DNA from: a virus
Direction: 5' to 3' (one strand)
DNA: 34,669 bases
Virus genome (UHGV): UHGV-0090561
Of the stretch, positions 673 to 34,638 are shown one piece after another. Each line of letters starts with the position of its first letter. Within the stretch, counting starts at the first letter, position 1. The translations under genes were made by a program, and so were the position numbers. The notes beneath the pieces are model-generated. The model worked only from the letters and a program-made list of their open reading frames with translations. It made no database searches and was not told where the DNA came from.

Positions 673-3230
673 CGTCCACCTCCGGAGAACAGACCACCAT
701 CGCGCATCTGCCCGGTCACAACATCCATTGCCGCCTTACGGGCTACGTCATAAACAGCCTTCAGCGCCTGTGGCCCTATCTGACCGTTCGTGCCGTCGTT
801 GTTAATCACCACATGGTTATTCTGCTCAAACTTCCCGGACGCCTGCGACCGGCTGTCCGCCATGCTGCCCGGTGTACCGACATAACCACCGGTGGCATAG
901 CCGCGCATCAGCCGGTAGAGATTCCCCACGCCAATCCGGCTGGTTGCCTCCTTCGTGAAGACAAATTCACCGCGGTGAACAATCCCCGCAGGCTCATATT
1001 TGCCGCCGGTTCCCGTAAATCCCCCGGTCGCAAAATGGAATTTCGCCGCAGCTGCCTGAATGGCTGTACCGCCTGACGCTGATGCGTCACCACCGACAGC
1101 ACCGCCAATGACACTGCCGACACTCCCGACAATCCCCACCATTGCCTGCTTAAGCAGAATTTCTGTCATCATGGACAGCACGGAACGGGTGAAGCTGCGC
1201 CAGTTCTGCTCACTGCCGGTCAGCATCGCCGCCATATTCTGCGCAATACCATCAAAGGTCTGCGTGGCAGCACTTTTAACCTGCGACATACTGTCCGTGG
1301 CACTCTCTTTCCACTCGCTCCAGCCGGACTTCAGGCCAGCCATCCAGCTCCCGCGAAGCAGGTCTTCAGCTGCCCAGGTCTTTTTCTGCTCTGACATGAC
1401 GTTATTCAGCGCCAGCGGATTATCGCCATACTGCTCCTTCAGACGCTGTTCCGTGGCGTCCCGCGCTGCCTGCCGGTCAGTAAGCCCCCGGTTTTTCGCC
1501 TCAATGGCTGCCCGTTTTGCCCGTTGTTGCTGTGCGAACTTATCCGCCTGCTGCGCCAGCGCGTTCAGGTGCTCCTGATACGTGACCTTATCGCCAAGTA
1601 CAGCCAGCTGGCGTTTGTACTCCAGCGTCTCATCTTTATGCGCCAGCAGGGATTTCTCCTGTGCGGATAGCTGGCGACGTTGTGCCGCCTCCTCCAGTAC
1701 CGCGAACTGATTTTCCGCCTTCCACAAATCCCGGCGCTGCTGGCTGATTTTCTCATTCGCTCCGGCATGCTTCTCCAGCGTCCGGAGTTCTGCCTGAAGC
1801 GTCAGCAGGGCAGCATGAGCACTGTCTTCCTGACGATCGCCCGCAGACACCTTCACGCCGGACTGTTTCGGCTTTTTCAGCGTCGCTTCATAATCCTTTT
1901 TCGCCGCCGCCATCAGCGTGTTGTAATCTGCCTGCAGGATTTTCCCGTCTTTCAGTGCCTTGTTCAGTTCTTCCTGACGGGCGGTATATTTCTCCAGCGG
2001 TGTCTGCAGCCGTTCGTAAGCCTTCTGCGCCTCTTCGGTATATTTCAGCCGTGATGCTTCGGTATCGCTCTGCTGCTGCGCATTTTTGTCCTGTTGACTC
2101 TGCTGTTCAGCCTTCTTTCGGGCGGCTTCAAGCGCAAGACGGGCCTTTTCACGATCATCCCAGTAACGCGCCCGCGCTTCATCGTTAACAAAATAATCAT
2201 CCTTGCGCAGATTCCAGATGTCGTCCGCTTTCTTAAACGCAGCCTCTGCCTTAATCAGCATCTCCTGAGCGGTATCAGGGCGACCAATATCCAGCACCGC
2301 ATCCCACATGGATTTGAATGCCCGCGCTGTCCTGTCTGCCCAGGTCTCCAGCGTACCCATGTTCTCTTTCAGGCGGCGGGTCTGGTCATCAAACCCTTTC
2401 GTCGCGGCCTCGTTCGCCGCCTGCAATGCCCCGGCTTCATCGCCGGAACGCTGCAACTGAGCAACATACGCAATCTGCTCCGCCGTCACGTTATGGAACT
2501 GGCGTGCCATCGCCGTCAGCCCCGACGTCGGGTCTGTGGTCAGCTTCCCGAAGGCTTCAGCGACCTTGTCCACCTCCACGCCGGATGCAGAGGAGAAACG
2601 CGCCACACTCTGGCTGATGGATGCAATCTGAGCCTCACCGCTTACTCCCGCCTTAACCAGTGCGCTGAGTGACTCGCTGGTCTGGTTAAACGTCAGCCCT
2701 GCCGCCTGCCCGGCTCTGGACAGGACCAGCATGCGATCTGCCGTCAGACCCGACTGATTGCCGGAAAGGACCAGCGTTTTGTTGAAATCGGACAGGGTTG
2801 AGTTGCCCTGATACCAGGCATACGCCAGCGCACCGGTCGCCACCGCCAGCGAGGTGGCCCCCACCATCGGCAGGGTGATCGCACCGGCAAGCCCCCTGAA
2901 CATGGGGATCATCCCGCCGAAGGAGTCCTTAACCTGCCCCCCCTGTTGCAGCAGGATCAGCCACGGACTTTGCCCGCCTGCAAGCTGCGTGGCCACGTCG
3001 GTGAACTGTGCAGGAAGCATACGCATGGCGGCTTTATACTGTCCGACGGAAATCCCCGCTTTCTGTGCAGCCAGCGCCTGCCGGTTCATTGACTGTTCAA
3101 CGACTGCCGCTGTTTTTTTCGCATCACTTTCCGTACCGGAAAAATGACGCCTGACTCTGGCCATCTGCTCGTCAAATCTGGCCGCATCCAGACTCAAATC
3201 AACGACCAGATCGCCTACCGGTTCAGCCAT
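669..3230 (-). CDS. H: Tail tape measure protein H
   Basis: 853-aa ORF, the length of lambda gpH, with recognisable N-terminus MAEPVGDLVVDLSLDAARFDEQMARVRRHF and long coiled-coil repeats. Confidence 0.95.
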   Translation of the reverse strand: MAEPVGDLVVDLSLDAARFDEQMARVRRHFSGTESDAKKTAAVVEQSMNRQALAAQKAGISVGQYKAAMRMLPAQFTDVATQLAGGQSPWLILLQQGGQVKDSFGGMIPMFRGLAGAITLPMVGATSLAVATGALAYAWYQGNSTLSDFNKTLVLSGNQSGLTADRMLVLSRAGQAAGLTFNQTSESLSALVKAGVSGEAQIASISQSVARFSSASGVEVDKVAEAFGKLTTDPTSGLTAMARQFHNVTAEQIAYVAQLQRSGDEAGALQAANEAATKGFDDQTRRLKENMGTLETWADRTARAFKSMWDAVLDIGRPDTAQEMLIKAEAAFKKADDIWNLRKDDYFVNDEARARYWDDREKARLALEAARKKAEQQSQQDKNAQQQSDTEASRLKYTEEAQKAYERLQTPLEKYTARQEELNKALKDGKILQADYNTLMAAAKKDYEATLKKPKQSGVKVSAGDRQEDSAHAALLTLQAELRTLEKHAGANEKISQQRRDLWKAENQFAVLEEAAQRRQLSAQEKSLLAHKDETLEYKRQLAVLGDKVTYQEHLNALAQQADKFAQQQRAKRAAIEAKNRGLTDRQAARDATEQRLKEQYGDNPLALNNVMSEQKKTWAAEDLLRGSWMAGLKSGWSEWKESATDSMSQVKSAATQTFDGIAQNMAAMLTGSEQNWRSFTRSVLSMMTEILLKQAMVGIVGSVGSVIGGAVGGDASASGGTAIQAAAAKFHFATGGFTGTGGKYEPAGIVHRGEFVFTKEATSRIGVGNLYRLMRGYATGGYVGTPGSMADSRSQASGKFEQNNHVVINNDGTNGQIGPQALKAVYDVARKAAMDVVTGQMRDGGLFSGGGR

Positions 3231-3657
3231 ACCGGACTCCTCCTGCGATCCCTTCTGATACTGTCATCAGCATTACGTCATCCTCCGTCATGTCCGCCAC
3301 ATCCGGGGAAGCGGGGATAACTTCATTCCCGTCCGGGCCAAAGCGGACACCTCCGGCAAGCCCTGCCGCTTTCTGCATCAGCACATCATCTTCAGGCTCT
3401 TCGTCAGCCTCGCGCCGGTTCAGCAGACTGAAATCCAGCGGATGCATATCCGGATCGCTGAAAAACAGGCTGAGTACGGTGTACGTCAGCCCGGAAAAGT
3501 GCATATCCAGCAGAACATCATGAAAATAATGGGTACTGTAAAAGCGGTGCCAGTCGGCATACTCCGTGGATGACATCCCGGCAAGCATGGCACGCCAGTC
3601 GGGTCGCCCCATCTCGCGCGCCAGTTTCAGGGCAAAACTCAGCTCACCGTCGAACAC
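3223..3657 (-). CDS. T: T frame of the G-T tail assembly chaperone (expressed by -1 frameshift from G)
   Basis: ORF overlapping the 3' end of G in the -1 frame and directly upstream of H, as in lambda; slippery heptamer present. Confidence 0.85.
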   Translation of the reverse strand: MFDGELSFALKLAREMGRPDWRAMLAGMSSTEYADWHRFYSTHYFHDVLLDMHFSGLTYTVLSLFFSDPDMHPLDFSLLNRREADEEPEDDVLMQKAAGLAGGVRFGPDGNEVIPASPDVADMTEDDVMLMTVSEGIAGGVRYG

Positions 3658-4061
3658 TTTCCCGCAGAAACAGGCTCTGCGGGCCCGGCGTCCTCTGTCT
3701 GTTCAGGGGCATTATTCACCACAAACTCATACATACCAGACAGCCGGTACACCACGTTTTCAGCATGAGAAATTGCCTCCGTGGGCCAGGTGGTAAGCAC
3801 TTCCTGCTCAATCTGTTTAACGGCTTCATTCATGGACGGCATCTGCGTCTTCTGCGGATGGTTATGCCACAGGGACATCGCCACCAGAAACGCGCCGGTT
3901 CTGATGGCGTCTTCCACAGTAAACTTCCGGTTGCTGTCTGACTCCGCCTGTTCTGCCTGCCGTTTCATCAGGGCGAGATGCTCAATGCGCTGCAGGGCTG
4001 ACAGTTCAGAAAGCGTGACGGTCACGCCGTTATATTCAAATGATTCGGTTTTCAGGAACAT
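3639..4061 (-). CDS. G: Tail assembly chaperone G
   Basis: 140-aa ORF MFLKTESFEYNGVTVTLSELSALQRIEHLALMKRQAEQ matches recalled lambda gpG. Confidence 0.93.
   Translation of the reverse strand: MFLKTESFEYNGVTVTLSELSALQRIEHLALMKRQAEQAESDSNRKFTVEDAIRTGAFLVAMSLWHNHPQKTQMPSMNEAVKQIEQEVLTTWPTEAISHAENVVYRLSGMYEFVVNNAPEQTEDAGPAEPVSAGKCSTVS
3657..3663 (-). promoter_or_regulatory. Programmed -1 ribosomal frameshift slippery site GGGAAAG (G to G-T)
   Basis: Reverse complement of ctttccc near the 3' end of G reads GGGAAAG, the lambda G-T slippery heptamer; position hand-counted. Confidence 0.8.
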
Positions 4062-28307: not shown

Positions 28308-29111
28308 ATGACAGAAAAAGATAACATTGGTAAGTTAATTTGGCATATTGCTTGCGATGAATCTGGCATTGATGGGCAACGTTTCTACGGCTTTGGCAGT
28401 CTGTGGATGAAGTACCAACGCCGTGGGGATTTCTGTCAACTAATCAGAGAACTACGCAGCAAACATGGTTTTTTTGAAGAAATAAAATGGCAAAAAGCCC
28501 ATTCAAAAAGATACTCTGAATTTTATCTTGAGCTGATCGACTTATTCTTTAGAGTTCCTTGGCTAGCTTTTCATTGTATCGTGGTTGAAAAATCAATAGT
28601 AAACAAGGCATTTCATAATGGGGATTATGACCTGGCAAGGAGAAAGCACTTCACAAATCTCATTACCACAAAAATTAGCTCTGTAATTTCTGCACACCCT
28701 GAAAGAGACAGTTACTTCAGGATTGAAGTTGATCCTATCGCATCTCGTTATAAAAAGGCCGATGAAGAACTAAATGTTATTGCCAATAACATATTGAATA
28801 GAAAATTTGGTCGTAAAGGGATAATCAGCAGTGTAGTGACAAAAGACTCTAAAGCATCTGAAAACATTCAGCTAGCCGATTTTTTCTTAGGTGCGGTTAT
28901 GTGCGCATATCAAGGAAAAGCTTCATCTGAAGCCAAAATAAGAGTATCAAACTATGTTGCTTCATATTTAGGCTGGGATCATTTGCAATATGATACATGG
29001 CACACTGAGAGAAAATTTAATATCTGGTATTTTTATGATAAAACTCGAGGGCCACGAGATATAGAAACTCAAAATGTTAGCTTAAAGTATCCACTTCCCC
29101 AAAAGAAATAG
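28308..29111 (+). CDS. DUF3800-like protein (accessory gene between Q and S, antisense to late transcription)
   Basis: 267-aa ORF in a markedly AT-rich island; N-terminal HIACDESG and C-terminal IQLADFFLGAV resemble the DUF3800 motifs as I recall them (not HMM-verified). Confidence 0.55.
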   Translation: MTEKDNIGKLIWHIACDESGIDGQRFYGFGSLWMKYQRRGDFCQLIRELRSKHGFFEEIKWQKAHSKRYSEFYLELIDLFFRVPWLAFHCIVVEKSIVNKAFHNGDYDLARRKHFTNLITTKISSVISAHPERDSYFRIEVDPIASRYKKADEELNVIANNILNRKFGRKGIISSVVTKDSKASENIQLADFFLGAVMCAYQGKASSEAKIRVSNYVASYLGWDHLQYDTWHTERKFNIWYFYDKTRGPRDIETQNVSLKYPLPQKK

Positions 29112-31423: not shown

Positions 31424-31620
31424 GCTTCACCTCCGCAGAGGTCAGACGCTGGATGCAAAAAATCGCAGGTGCATTTCTGCATCTGTGAAGGGAGAAGAGA
31501 GTTTGGATTGTATGTGCGCATAAACGTCCCCGTTTAGCGCAGAAGTCACCGGAGTTGTTCAGGCCCCGATGAGATGATTATGGCGGGTTGATAGCTGGAA
31601 ATCAAATTGCTTTCATGTCT

Positions 31621-31824
31621 TCAAATAACCTTCAATTTTTCGATTTGGCTTTCTCGATAGGCTATCTCTTTTTGTATTTCATCCAGACGACCTTGATTGT
31701 ATTCACCTTCAAGAGCGTCCTCGCATATAGCAGTTTCTTCTTCCAAAAGTTCTCTAATTTTTCGCTGATGATGTGTCATTCCCTGCCTTGCCCCTTCTGG
31801 GGTAGATTCAAATTCTATCGTCAC
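31621..31824 (-). CDS. Hypothetical small acidic protein
   Basis: About 67 aa; AGGAGG Shine-Dalgarno with GTG/TTG start; glutamate-rich, coiled-coil-like C-terminus. Confidence 0.45.
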   Translation of the reverse strand: MTIEFESTPEGARQGMTHHQRKIRELLEEETAICEDALEGEYNQGRLDEIQKEIAYRESQIEKLKVI

Positions 31825-32038
31825 TTTCAACCCTCCTGTTTTCAGATAAACCGGATCGCTACCGATCGCTACCTTTAGGTAAAGTTATCGACTTCTCGGA
31901 ATAAAACTTCAGGCACTCATTGTACGCTTTACTAGATGCCACCAAGTTAATGTTTACCTTGTCGCCTTCGTACTAGATTTTAGCTGCTATGTTAAAGTCT
32001 GACATATCGGTATCAAGTCAATAAGTTGCATAATTTCT

Positions 32039-32058
32039 AAAAAACCCGCCAAAGCGGG
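32039..32058 (-). terminator. Rho-independent terminator downstream of the NADAR-like gene
   Basis: Minus-strand hairpin CCCGC-tttg-GCGGG followed by a U-run (plus strand aaaaaaCCCGCCAAAGCGGGtt); position hand-counted. Confidence 0.6.
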
Positions 32059-32099
32059 TTTGCAGATCTGTCACGACAGTGAAAGGAACAACAGCCACA

Positions 32100-32717
32100 T
32101 TAAAAAAGCGATAAGCTTTGCCCCGAATTCATCGGTAGTGGAGAGAAAGTAACATCACGTATTTGCTCCCCGAGCAGAAGAAACCTATCCAAGGGTAGCG
32201 GCGGTATCGTAGCAAACCCTGAAAGCCCCTTCTTTCTTGCAACATCTCTCGCATCCATAAGGATACGACCTAACACGTTCATACCATAAAAGTTACCTTC
32301 GGAGTCTTTACTAGCCCCCCAAAATTGGTCCTTCTCTGAGTGCTCAACAATGTCATGCTCTCCTGTGCTATCCAGGAGCGCGAAAAACGATTCCCAGTTC
32401 TGGCAAAGCTTAACGCAGACACACCATTTCATTACCGAAACTCGATTTTTTTCCCAACCTGCACGGGTTTTGGCTTCGAAAGATCTGGCAGTTTGTTTAG
32501 CTTCATAAGGGTTGCCTTGGGTAATAATAGCCTTTTGGATATCTGGATAGTCTGGATATCGGCATGCTTGGTAAAGAATTTCACTCGATTGAATGGGTAT
32601 ACCATTAACTAAGAGCGGATATCCTTTGGCCATGTTGGAAAGCCCCCCCCATTTCTCGGTGGTTTTCCTGAAAGAAACTGTGTTGTGAAACAGGTATAGT
32701 CTATAGCTCATGATCAC
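32100..32717 (-). CDS. NADAR-domain (YbiA-like, DUF1768) protein, putative
   Basis: 205-aa ORF; N-terminal FRKTTEKWGGLSNMAKGYP...SSEILYQACRY fits the NADAR N-terminal pattern as I recall it; ATGA overlap with the upstream gene. Confidence 0.55.
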   Translation of the reverse strand: MIMSYRLYLFHNTVSFRKTTEKWGGLSNMAKGYPLLVNGIPIQSSEILYQACRYPDYPDIQKAIITQGNPYEAKQTARSFEAKTRAGWEKNRVSVMKWCVCVKLCQNWESFFALLDSTGEHDIVEHSEKDQFWGASKDSEGNFYGMNVLGRILMDARDVARKKGLSGFATIPPLPLDRFLLLGEQIRDVTFSPLPMNSGQSLSLF

Positions 32718-33733
32718 CGATTATACACATTACGCTTCATAAGTGGATACCAACAATCCAGAGCTCTATTTCCCGTTCGAAGATAAGTTCCCCACCAGTA
32801 CGCTAGAGGGGTATTATTGGGGCAGTTTCTGAAAGTAAAGATAGTTCCACCAAACCCAACACCATTGAAAGTTGAAAAGCCTAAAGGTTTTATAACATCA
32901 GAAGGATTTTGACTCTGACTAAGGATATCAAACCCAACTTTTGTCATAATTGCTTCAAAACGATCTCGTCTCTGCTCATTAGGGAAAAATTTATTCGCGA
33001 CGTAACCGTCACGATATGTTCCTAAATAATGTACTTGACCGTCAGCCCATTCAGGTATTGATACACTTTGCGCTTTTGGCCAAAAAACCTCAGAACTCGA
33101 ACTGTTTCGGCGTTGATTTTCAACAACTGCAAACTCACCAACACCAACGCAAACTGAAATATTCCTATCAGCAAATTTTCGTTCAAGTTGGTTTTTTATC
33201 TTCCATGCTGAATACGTGTGCCCGCCTAAAAAGTACACCAATATTGTAATATTTTGGAGTTCAAAGTGCTCAATAAACCAAGTTAAATCATTGATTGCCT
33301 TAGCTCCTGAGAATGAAACATCGTCAAAGTAAATAAATTCACGGAATGAACTAACTCTTTGACGTTGTGACAGTCTGGTCACAACGTTGAATTCTTCCAC
33401 ACAATCTTCTCGAAGCAAATCCAAAAACTCAGATTGACTGGTGCCTTGGTTCTGGATATCGAGAAACGCTGCGGTTTGAAAGAACCTTTCATTTTGCTCA
33501 TCATTGGCGATACTACTAATAACTCTGCGATAGTCGCTCTCAGAGAAGTATCCAATCCCCATTAATCGGTCCGTTTCCTCTAAGACAAATCGCCTATCGG
33601 TTAACTCAAATTGATTAATCCATCGATTAACATGATCAATGCTCATGCCACCTTGAGGAGGGTTTCGATAGTCATTTAGTTTAGTAGCAATTTGCCCCAT
33701 AAGATCACGATCTGTAACATTGCTATAACACAT
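32714..33733 (-). CDS. Phosphoribosyltransferase-like protein (type I PRTase PRPP-binding motif), function unknown
   Basis: 339-aa ORF, AT-rich; motif FIYFDDVSFSGAKAI resembles the PRPP-binding loop (hydrophobic x4, DD, then small residues and G); flanking domains unrecognised. Confidence 0.5.
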   Translation of the reverse strand: MCYSNVTDRDLMGQIATKLNDYRNPPQGGMSIDHVNRWINQFELTDRRFVLEETDRLMGIGYFSESDYRRVISSIANDEQNERFFQTAAFLDIQNQGTSQSEFLDLLREDCVEEFNVVTRLSQRQRVSSFREFIYFDDVSFSGAKAINDLTWFIEHFELQNITILVYFLGGHTYSAWKIKNQLERKFADRNISVCVGVGEFAVVENQRRNSSSSEVFWPKAQSVSIPEWADGQVHYLGTYRDGYVANKFFPNEQRRDRFEAIMTKVGFDILSQSQNPSDVIKPLGFSTFNGVGFGGTIFTFRNCPNNTPLAYWWGTYLRTGNRALDCWYPLMKRNVYNR

Positions 33734-33936
33734 ATAGATTCCTGTTCATGCATTGATACGAAAGGATCAGAATACTCTTAAAATAATTTAGTGAAAGCCT
33801 TAAAAGTCATAATGTTAACATGTATCACAAATTGTGATTTTTCTCAGTATCTGAGACGTAAACTGAATCCAAGACCACTAATCTGGCTCAAAAAATTTAG
33901 AAAGTTTCTCATAATGAATAATTGCCTCTTTGCCCG

Positions 33937-34638
33937 TCATACACTTGCTCCTTTCAGTCCGAACTTAGCTTTGATTTCTGCGATCTTCGCCAAAGCCTGT
34001 GCACGATTTAGAGGTCTACCGCCCATGACAGGAAGTTGTTTTACTGGTTCAGGTATCGCCTCACCACGGTTAATTCGCGCGGTCATACAGGACAGTTCAT
34101 CGGCAGCCTTGCGCCGCAATTCCGCGTCAGTCAACGCATTGGCCCGCATGTTCTGGTACAGGTTGGTAACCAGCCAGTAGTGCGCGTTTGATTTCCACGG
34201 ATAAGACTCTGCATCCGGATACAGGCCACGCTTCCGGCAATACTCGTAAACCATATCAACCAGCTCGCTGACGTTTGGCAGCCCGGCGTTAACGGATGCT
34301 TCTTCCCGGCACCAGGCGACAAACTGTCCGGGTGATGGCAGGAATGGTCTATTCTGCCGACGGGCGACACGCATTCCGGCGCTCACCTGTTCCATCGTGG
34401 TGATCCCGTTTTCCCGGAAAGCCAGAACCCACTGGCGGCGGATTTCGTTCAGTTCGTTCTGGTCACGGTTAGCCAGGCTCGCCGGGAAAGTTGCCAGTAA
34501 CTGGCTGAATACACCGTTGATTATCTGCGCTACCTGCTGTACCTGCGGCTTTTCGTCGTACTGTTCCGGCATGTTGTTGGCGATCCGGCGCATCTGCTCA
34601 CGGTCAAAATTAATCATCTGTGCGGCGATGTTTTTCAT
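33937..34638 (-). CDS. P: Replication protein P (DnaB helicase loader)
   Basis: 233-aa ORF MKNIAAQMINFDREQMRRIANNMPEQYDEKPQVQQVAQIINGVFSQLL... matches lambda P. Confidence 0.95.
   Translation of the reverse strand: MKNIAAQMINFDREQMRRIANNMPEQYDEKPQVQQVAQIINGVFSQLLATFPASLANRDQNELNEIRRQWVLAFRENGITTMEQVSAGMRVARRQNRPFLPSPGQFVAWCREEASVNAGLPNVSELVDMVYEYCRKRGLYPDAESYPWKSNAHYWLVTNLYQNMRANALTDAELRRKAADELSCMTARINRGEAIPEPVKQLPVMGGRPLNRAQALAKIAEIKAKFGLKGASV

Follow-up and report, generated by a model that had tools for sequence, protein, structure and literature searches.

We analysed a 34,669-nucleotide stretch of viral DNA (UHGV virus genome UHGV-0090561; hereafter the window) and found that, directly after the replication gene P of this lambdoid E. 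coli prophage, two adjacent genes encode a phosphoribosyltransferase-like (PRTase-like) protein and a NADAR protein. Judged by their sequences, the two form a pair of an already known anti-phage family, DS-32, which is named in NCBIfam and in some recent RefSeq records. The overall best explanation, to which we assign a probability of roughly 0.6, is that the pair is a prophage cargo cassette, a DS-32 defence system in which the PRTase-like protein is the effector and the NADAR protein reverses its action. The annotation question is settled, in that this is a validated defence family in a typical prophage cargo slot; the chemistry of the pair and its relatives embedded in restriction-modification (R-M) systems are worth following.

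Both window proteins exceeded the NCBIfam equivalog cut-offs of this family. The PRTase-like protein scored 313 bits against NF053875 (DS32_1, ‘phosphoribosyltransferase-like anti-phage protein’; cut-off 250) over residues 12–334, and the NADAR protein scored 259.8 bits against NF053876 (DS32_2, ‘NADAR family anti-phage protein’; cut-off 240). Compared with the validated proteins, they were 52% identical over 338 aa to DS-32A (WP_000097610.1) and 85% identical over 203 aa to DS-32B (WP_032260665.1), respectively. The gene order is also that of DS-32, with the PRTase gene first, both genes on the same strand in one tightly coupled transcription unit, and a terminator after the NADAR gene. Moreover, a DS-32A-like PRTase allele of 343 aa occupies the slot between P and ybcN in E. 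coli. The window block differs from DS-32 in additionally carrying a theta-like remnant and an open reading frame (ORF) of 67 aa.

DS-32 itself (clone ‘NADR’) is an E. coli PRTase and NADAR pair from NZ_QOXQ01000027.1 that was described with DefensePredictor (DeWeirdt et al., bioRxiv 10.1101/2025.01.08.631726; Science 2026, PMC13092281). For the test, the pair alone was placed, with its predicted native promoter, on a low-copy plasmid, and E. coli MG1655 carrying it faced 24 phages (PMC13092281). Protection, as -log10 efficiency of plating (EOP), reached 3.7 for the T5-like phage Bas26, 1.6 for RB69, 0.9 for SECphi18 and 0.6 for T5, and smaller plaques were scored throughout, including for Bas67, whose EOP stayed unchanged (Table S7, PMC13092281). 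By homology to this pair, the window allele very probably has a defence role.

The cassette and its surroundings are laid out as follows, in the order of transcription.

33937–34638, minus strand: replication gene P (Pfam Phage_lambda_P, 1e-61), left border of the cargo slot
33734–33936, minus strand: AT-rich cassette leader of 203 bp, between P and the PRTase-like ORF
32714–33733, minus strand: PRTase-like ORF of the DS-32A type, 339 aa (Pfam and NCBIfam)
32100–32711, minus strand: NADAR ORF of the DS-32B type, 203 aa (Pfam and NCBIfam)
32039–32061, minus strand: intrinsic terminator of the two-gene operon (sequence and folding)
about 31859–32005, minus strand: decayed theta (HolE/Hot)-like remnant (translation with an in-frame stop)
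31621–31824, minus strand: acidic, coiled-coil-like ORF of 67 aa (phrog_19187, 3e-49)

An earlier note on this DNA, made from the letters alone, had described an AT-rich block right after P on the minus strand, and the ORF and G+C data agree with it in position and orientation. The G+C fraction of the block was 0.33–0.47, against 0.50–0.58 in P and 0.48–0.55 in the nin genes, and homology to lambdoid phages ended near 33912, about 25 nt beyond the P stop codon, and restarted near 31611 (megablast against isolated phages, which matched the flanks only). Because of this drop in G+C content and the break and resumption of homology, we regard the block as a 2.3-kb mosaic insertion at the position of lambda ren. 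The cassette shares with ren, another occupant of the P–ninB slot, its position and the early right operon; there is no sequence relation between them, and ren is absent here. The suggestion that the block replaces the ren and nin genes was therefore correct for ren, but the ninB-like ybcN, ninE, rusA and Q come after it, as in other lambdoid prophages. Similarly, the three ORFs of the proposed ‘three-gene block’ are all present, but they do not form one unit: the two-gene operon ends at its terminator, a theta-like remnant comes next, and the acidic ORF follows as a separate small gene with its own AGGAGG ribosome-binding site.

Within the operon, the NADAR ATG at 32711 lies 2 nt past the PRTase TGA, and an alternative GTG at 32717 overlaps the PRTase gene, in line with the translational coupling that had been proposed. 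The predicted terminator after the NADAR gene is likewise there, as a hairpin (AAACCCGC-TTTG-GCGGGTTT) followed by T's at 32061–32039 with a folding energy of -14.8 kcal/mol. A simple promoter and terminator scan overlooked this hairpin, which was recovered by folding, and it was also the only Rfam near-match in the region, below threshold. Rfam and repeat searches of the block otherwise gave nothing meaningful, and a retron noncoding RNA (ncRNA) was not found.

The 339-aa protein, in which the earlier note had seen a motif like those that bind phosphoribosyl pyrophosphate (PRPP), matched Pfam PRTase-CE (PF24390) at 1e-39, the PADLOC retron model PRTase_III-A at 1.9e-10 (residues 34–334) and phrog_8525, and a search of the PDB with its sequence returned no match. 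An AlphaFold2 model built from 34 homologues (pLDDT, the predicted local distance difference test, 89.9) displayed a type I PRTase fold with a Rossmann-like core and an N-terminal helical domain (residues ~1–87). The motif fell on the PRPP loop of the model (FIYFDDVSFSGAKAI, residues 133–147), where F133-IYFDDVSFSGAK-A146 spans the end of a strand (132–140) and the start of a helix (144–157). Y135, D138 and R302–N307 were invariant, and D137 was at least 90% conserved. The C-terminal region (residues ~256–339) is rich in aromatic residues (PLGFSTF.G.GFGG..FT.RNCPNN.PLA.WW), and its RNCPNN motif is also present in retron PRTase effectors, as part of a G...PNNxP signature. Between the two E. coli alleles, the C-terminal third was 71% identical, against ~44% for the rest of the protein. 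Since the C-terminal pocket is so strongly conserved, we infer that it binds a universal acceptor such as a base or a nucleotide, and the faster-evolving parts of the sequence may have a sensing role. We consider PRPP-dependent catalysis by this effector probable.

The second gene had been called NADAR/YbiA-like, and its product matched Pfam NADAR at 5.7e-23 (82.4 bits; gathering score 35.1), with E. coli YbiA (2B3W) as the closest solved structure at 3e-12. The profile and structure-prediction searches thus upheld both family assignments, far above chance. Roles of NADAR catalytic residues have been defined (PMC11543638), and subfamilies are told apart by criteria that include the last-strand residue, which is Asp in BC4488, His in phage gp30.3 and Glu in the YbiA type (PMC11125620, PMC11543638). 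In the window protein, E44 of the SE motif and E123 of the last strand align to the YbiA positions, which is the signature of the YbiA subfamily. YbiA, a riboflavin-intermediate N-glycosidase, has the same catalytic Glu/Glu arrangement and acts on N-glycosides of ribose-5-phosphate, the kind of product expected of a PRTase; unlike the window protein, it is the 160-aa product of a housekeeping gene and lacks the conserved C-terminal extension of ~45 aa that follows the NADAR domain here. NADARs cut N-glycosidic bonds; those of the YbiA type do so in phosphoribosylamino compounds and in ADP-ribosyl-guanine, and for NADARs in general ADP-ribosyl-guanine within DNA is a substrate. These are bonds of the type that a PRTase would form. 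When we aligned 79 NADARs that are linked to a PRTase and come from many phyla, E44, R51 and E123 proved invariant, which argues that catalysis, and not binding alone, is under selection and that the NADAR protein is an active enzyme rather than only a binding partner. A metabolic role in riboflavin damage was considered and rejected, given a score of 71 against TIGR02464 (cut-off 73.7), the strict linkage to a PRTase, and the mobile and defence contexts.

We then asked how widely the pair occurs. Among the 5,426 complete E. coli genomes, 63 carried a DS-32 allele (41 at ≥99% identity to the window, 3 at 94.6% and 19 at 78%). The 78% allele that we examined (locus L091) encodes a PRTase with the 343-aa length of the validated DS-32A. 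This second E. coli allele sits in the same lambdoid-prophage slot between P and ybcN, where its neighbour is an MT-A70 methylase pseudogene and the 67-aa ORF is missing. A tblastn search with the PRTase against 50,697 isolated phage genomes returned no homologue, and plasmids yielded 7 weak-to-moderate matches (21.6–36.1% identity) that were of little informative value. The diverged homologues (25–50% identity) all keep a NADAR gene directly downstream in varied mobile contexts, namely an integrase/primase island of Klebsiella, a Sodalis type IV secretion system (T4SS) cluster, inside which the pair sits, and a P2-like prophage, where it lies between the repressor and integrase genes. When NADAR and PRTase identities were compared across seven loci, the NADAR was always the more conserved of the two (85 vs 52%, 67 vs 50%, 57 vs 36%, 50 vs 31% and 44 vs 30%), a pattern that suits a NADAR acting on a product better than one binding its partner in an allele-specific way.

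Several loci carried disrupted or duplicated copies. In two enterotoxigenic E. coli strains (ETEC1732/1734; loci H34 and H35), the IS5-family insertion sequence (IS) ISKpn26 splits the PRTase gene and leaves the NADAR gene intact. IS1 truncates the PRTase gene of E. coli isolate 58 (L092, 4001–5171), where the NADAR gene and the downstream prophage genes are gone and cusS follows. An enterobacterial locus from sequencing-run assemblies (L007–L010) bears two PRTase-CE genes in tandem (~7001–10159 in L007); the first PRTase of L007 is intact and 76% identical to DS-32A, its own NADAR is reduced to a C-terminal remnant, and a second, complete pair follows. These cases are few, and their sequences fit a toxin-antitoxin-like logic.

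To look beyond close relatives, one genome per species (GTDB) was scanned with the most conserved peptide of the family, which gave 277 loci, and the best 80 were analysed. In 79 of these 80, a NADAR ORF lay directly 3' of the PRTase on the same strand; the exception stops at a contig edge. We ran a Pfam scan on the NADAR ORFs from 78 of the best 80 loci and found that 36 of the 78 were fused to a domain of a DNA-related protein: type I R-M specificity domains (Methylase_S, HsdS) in 26, a DUF1156 DNA methylase in 6, and ComEA-like helix-hairpin-helix (HhH) domains in 4. The other 42 were without a detected DNA-related fusion domain and were mostly stand-alone, as in E. coli. All 26 HsdS-fused loci had hsdM upstream and no separate hsdS, and 19 of them had hsdR within the 4-kb flank, giving a recurring operon order of hsdM–PRTase–NADAR::hsdS–hsdR. 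A SNF2/NOV_C helicase gene lay directly 5' in five of the six DUF1156 loci, and one further metagenomic contig displayed the same arrangement. These fusions place the NADAR protein physically on DNA-reading enzymes, which supports a defence role across the family and lends plausibility to a substrate borne on DNA. We found no account in the searchable literature of the PRTase–NADAR::HsdS architecture embedded in R-M operons.

Two further features of these loci were observed. A gene for a GmrSD-like nuclease or a Schlafen/AlbA-HATPase protein was often inserted between hsdM and the PRTase gene, or after hsdS, in the R-M loci (L018, L026, L065, L073, L076 (~2150–3950); L021, L025, L044, L047). 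At a metagenomic locus (L004, 2943–6323), the BRCT end of a fragmented gene for an NAD-dependent DNA ligase runs on, in the same frame, into the PRTase ORF, a join that is probably a gene-call or pseudogene artefact and not a true fusion.

Signals for expression were sought in the 203-bp leader. In an alignment of five diverged alleles, only three upstream blocks were conserved: TTGTGAT, GTATTCT and the Shine-Dalgarno sequence AGGAAT (33743–33738). GTATTCT (33775–33769) is -10-like and lies ~35 nt before the PRTase start codon. TTGTGAT sits inside a perfect palindrome (ATCACAATTTGTGAT, 33838–33824), which may be an operator, since the TTGTGAT half is kept upstream of diverged alleles. Together, the blocks shared by the five alleles suggest that the cassette carries its own expression signals. 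A second short perfect palindrome (TCTCAGATACTGAGA) is present in the leader at 33856–33842.

We propose that the cassette, a ‘moron’ in the P–ninB slot of a lambdoid E. coli prophage, most likely shields the lysogen, and hence the prophage, from unrelated phages. The PRTase-like effector would transfer ribose-5-phosphate from PRPP to a conserved nitrogen acceptor, and the co-translated NADAR protein would hydrolyse the N-ribosyl product, so that the effector would be harmless, or would cycle, in uninfected cells. Infection would then upset the balance between PRTase and NADAR, and phage replication would be blocked. For the step in which the NADAR protein reverses the product of the effector, we see even odds. 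The acceptor may be a DNA base because the NADARs of relatives are fused to HsdS, DNA methylases and HhH domains; we put forward DNA as the target tentatively, at somewhat short of even odds.

A more specific form of this proposal is that PRTase-CE and NADAR are a PRPP-dependent counterpart of DarT and NADAR, a writer of DNA-base phosphoribosylation and its NADAR eraser, built in many bacteria into type I R-M enzymes (by way of NADAR::HsdS) and into SNF2-helicase/DUF1156-methylase systems, with the E. coli cassette as the minimal free-standing form. We regard this as unlikely; if true, phosphoribosylation of DNA would add to the known nucleic-acid modifications and would newly connect R-M with abortive-infection-type immunity. 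DarTG1 (PMC11543638) is also a two-gene defence module in which a NADAR N-glycosidase partners a transferase that forms an N-ribosyl linkage, and non-cognate NADARs are able to cross-neutralise. The window pair differs in that the neighbour of its NADAR is a PRTase-CE protein and not an ADP-ribosyltransferase (ART), and the predicted donor is PRPP and not NAD. Searches of the ORFs and Pfam revealed no ART domain among the block proteins, and the DS-32 authors likewise report no DarT1-type ART beside their NADAR (PMC13092281). The window NADAR is further set apart by being of the YbiA type (Glu) and not the BC4488 type (Asp), by the absence of an N-terminal extension, and by an Arg in place of a key Lys.

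This last difference is among several points that weigh against our proposal. At the position of the Lys that binds phosphate and adenine in other NADARs (K50 of P. nicotianae, K95 of E. coli C7), the window NADAR has R51, and the Arg is invariant throughout the PRTase-linked NADAR clade; in DarT1-NADAR, a K95R variant retained hydrolysis in vitro and lost rescue (PMC11543638). On the side of the effector, ShosT bound PRPP and none of the purines tested (PMC11961720), and no defence PRTase, retron effectors included, is known to have a defined acceptor. The Retron-Eco11 effector was non-toxic by itself, and activation cut PRPP by only ~50% (PMC12746101). Instead of acting on DNA, the NADARs fused to HsdS and to methylases could be tethered to an R-M complex in a guard arrangement. 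As to defence in general, the window PRTase is only 52% identical to the tested DS-32A, published protection by DS-32 was strong on one phage only (PMC13092281), and the DS-32 literature that we searched reports no mutants, toxicity tests or single-gene deletions. Finally, a sigma-70 consensus scan of the minus strand upstream of the PRTase gene gave no convincing site, and the cassette lies in the pR early operon directly after P, a position that makes lytic expression and a benefit to the phage itself possible.

The comparative data narrow the models to three, namely reversible N-phosphoribosylation (possibly of DNA), a PRPP sink and an R-M guard. As a sink, the PRTase would add ribose-5-phosphate to an acceptor that the NADAR protein regenerates at once by hydrolysis, and the two enzymes would impose nucleotide starvation when triggered by infection. 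PRPP depletion is the reported output of the homologous effector of a type III-A retron, Retron-Eco11, which loses about half of its host's PRPP once the T4 UvsW or T5 D10 helicase has activated it (PMC12746101). Type III-A retrons share with the window block a homologous effector with the PRPP loop and the G...PNNxP C-terminal motif, and their phage ranges overlap that of DS-32 (T5-like and T-even-like phages). They differ in that the effector's partner is a reverse transcriptase (RT) with its multicopy single-stranded DNA and not a NADAR, and the window block has no RT ORF, RT Pfam match or ncRNA. A comparable logic is seen in ShosTA (PMC11961720), a defence toxin whose type I PRTase domain binds PRPP; in ShosT, the PRTase is coupled with a second enzyme, a hydrolase, by which the reaction is drawn forward. 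ShosT, however, has a fused pyrophosphatase and a DprA-like DNA-binding antitoxin, lacks a NADAR and belongs to another PRTase clade; in the block only PRTase-CE and NADAR were above Pfam cut-offs, and no ShosTA model was among the PADLOC matches. Strict pairing, two invariant active sites and tight coupling of the genes also suit a sink. Yet retron effectors of the same family function without a NADAR, and the HsdS, DNA methylase and HhH fusions are hard to fit to a purely metabolic cycle. Moreover, the IS insertions strike the PRTase and not the NADAR, which is more toxin-antitoxin-like, with three genomes and two events only. On balance, we find a pure PRPP sink unlikely.

Alternatively, the NADAR protein would act mainly as a guard or decoy that binds the PRTase and keeps it inactive until released by a phage factor (in the relatives, an anti-restriction protein that attacks the R-M complex), and its enzymology would be secondary. 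The PrrC–EcoprrI arrangement is a precedent for a guard tethered to an R-M complex. In accord with this, 26 type I R-M operons have no specificity subunit other than NADAR::HsdS, and a conserved C-terminal extension follows the NADAR domain. The invariant catalytic residues of the 79 NADARs argue instead that catalysis is needed, and the NADAR diverges far less than the PRTase (85 vs 52%, 57 vs 36%), the opposite of the usual pattern for co-evolving binding partners. In addition, a single NADAR in L007 seems to work with two diverged PRTases. We therefore consider a guard improbable.

The direction favoured by the earlier note, which had called the pair a counter-defence or nucleotide-modification module, is probably wrong, although its theme of phage-host conflict stands; the evidence from the family favours prophage-borne defence. 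Under counter-defence, early expression from pR would let the NADAR protein strip DarT1-type ADP-ribose from phage DNA or degrade ADP-ribose signals while the PRTase helps to restore NAD or nucleotides, and three observations lean this way: the cassette comes right behind P in the early right operon, T4-like phages have orphan NADARs that reportedly neutralise DarTG1 (PMC11257639), and every NADAR subtype tested hydrolysed ADP-ribosyl-guanine in vitro (PMC11125620). We hold it to be very improbable because the pair meets the DS-32 cut-offs and a homologous pair alone defends MG1655, a phage-free host (PMC13092281), because the pair is kept in type I R-M operons, a T4SS element and islands across phyla, and because 50,697 isolated phage genomes are without a homologue. 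NADAR alone would also be enough against DarT, yet the PRTase is kept in 79 of 80 loci; YbiA-type and phage NADARs failed to rescue DarT1 toxicity in vivo (PMC11125620); and the PRTase is of the retron-effector type and not a NadV-type salvage enzyme. Even so, the NADAR protein may bring some protection from DarT1 as a side benefit.

Downstream of the operon, the theta-like remnant translates as MSDFNIAAKI*YEGDKVNINLVASSKAYNECLKFY..., and at the corresponding position of related prophages RefSeq annotates a theta pseudogene that is partial; the remnant is not part of the PRTase–NADAR system. Two promoter-like matches lie just upstream of it (32016–31977). The acidic ORF (pI 4.7) encodes 67 aa from its GTG or 69 aa from a TTG, and gave no Pfam, PADLOC or NCBIfam match and no tblastn match in isolated phages. 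In E. coli it travels with the block of this allele: no more than 40 complete genomes contained its DNA, and 41 contained the PRTase–NADAR DNA of the window at ≥99%. We considered this ORF as a third component and rejected it, as it is absent beside the second E. coli allele and beside all distant pairs examined.

Elsewhere in the prophage, an AT-rich ORF (35–40% G+C) of 267 aa lies between Q and the lysis genes (28308–29111, plus strand). Near-identical prophages have it annotated as a gene for a DUF3800 protein, and we therefore take it for another cargo gene; an NCBIfam search of the neighbouring cargo ORFs, this one included, gave no match. In relatives, the slot beside the prophage repressor holds a HipA-family kinase and a DUF3037 protein in one case (L001, 3868–5594) and a SIR2-family protein in another (L093, 1–370), and this repressor-adjacent position appears to be a second slot for defence cargo in this family of prophages.

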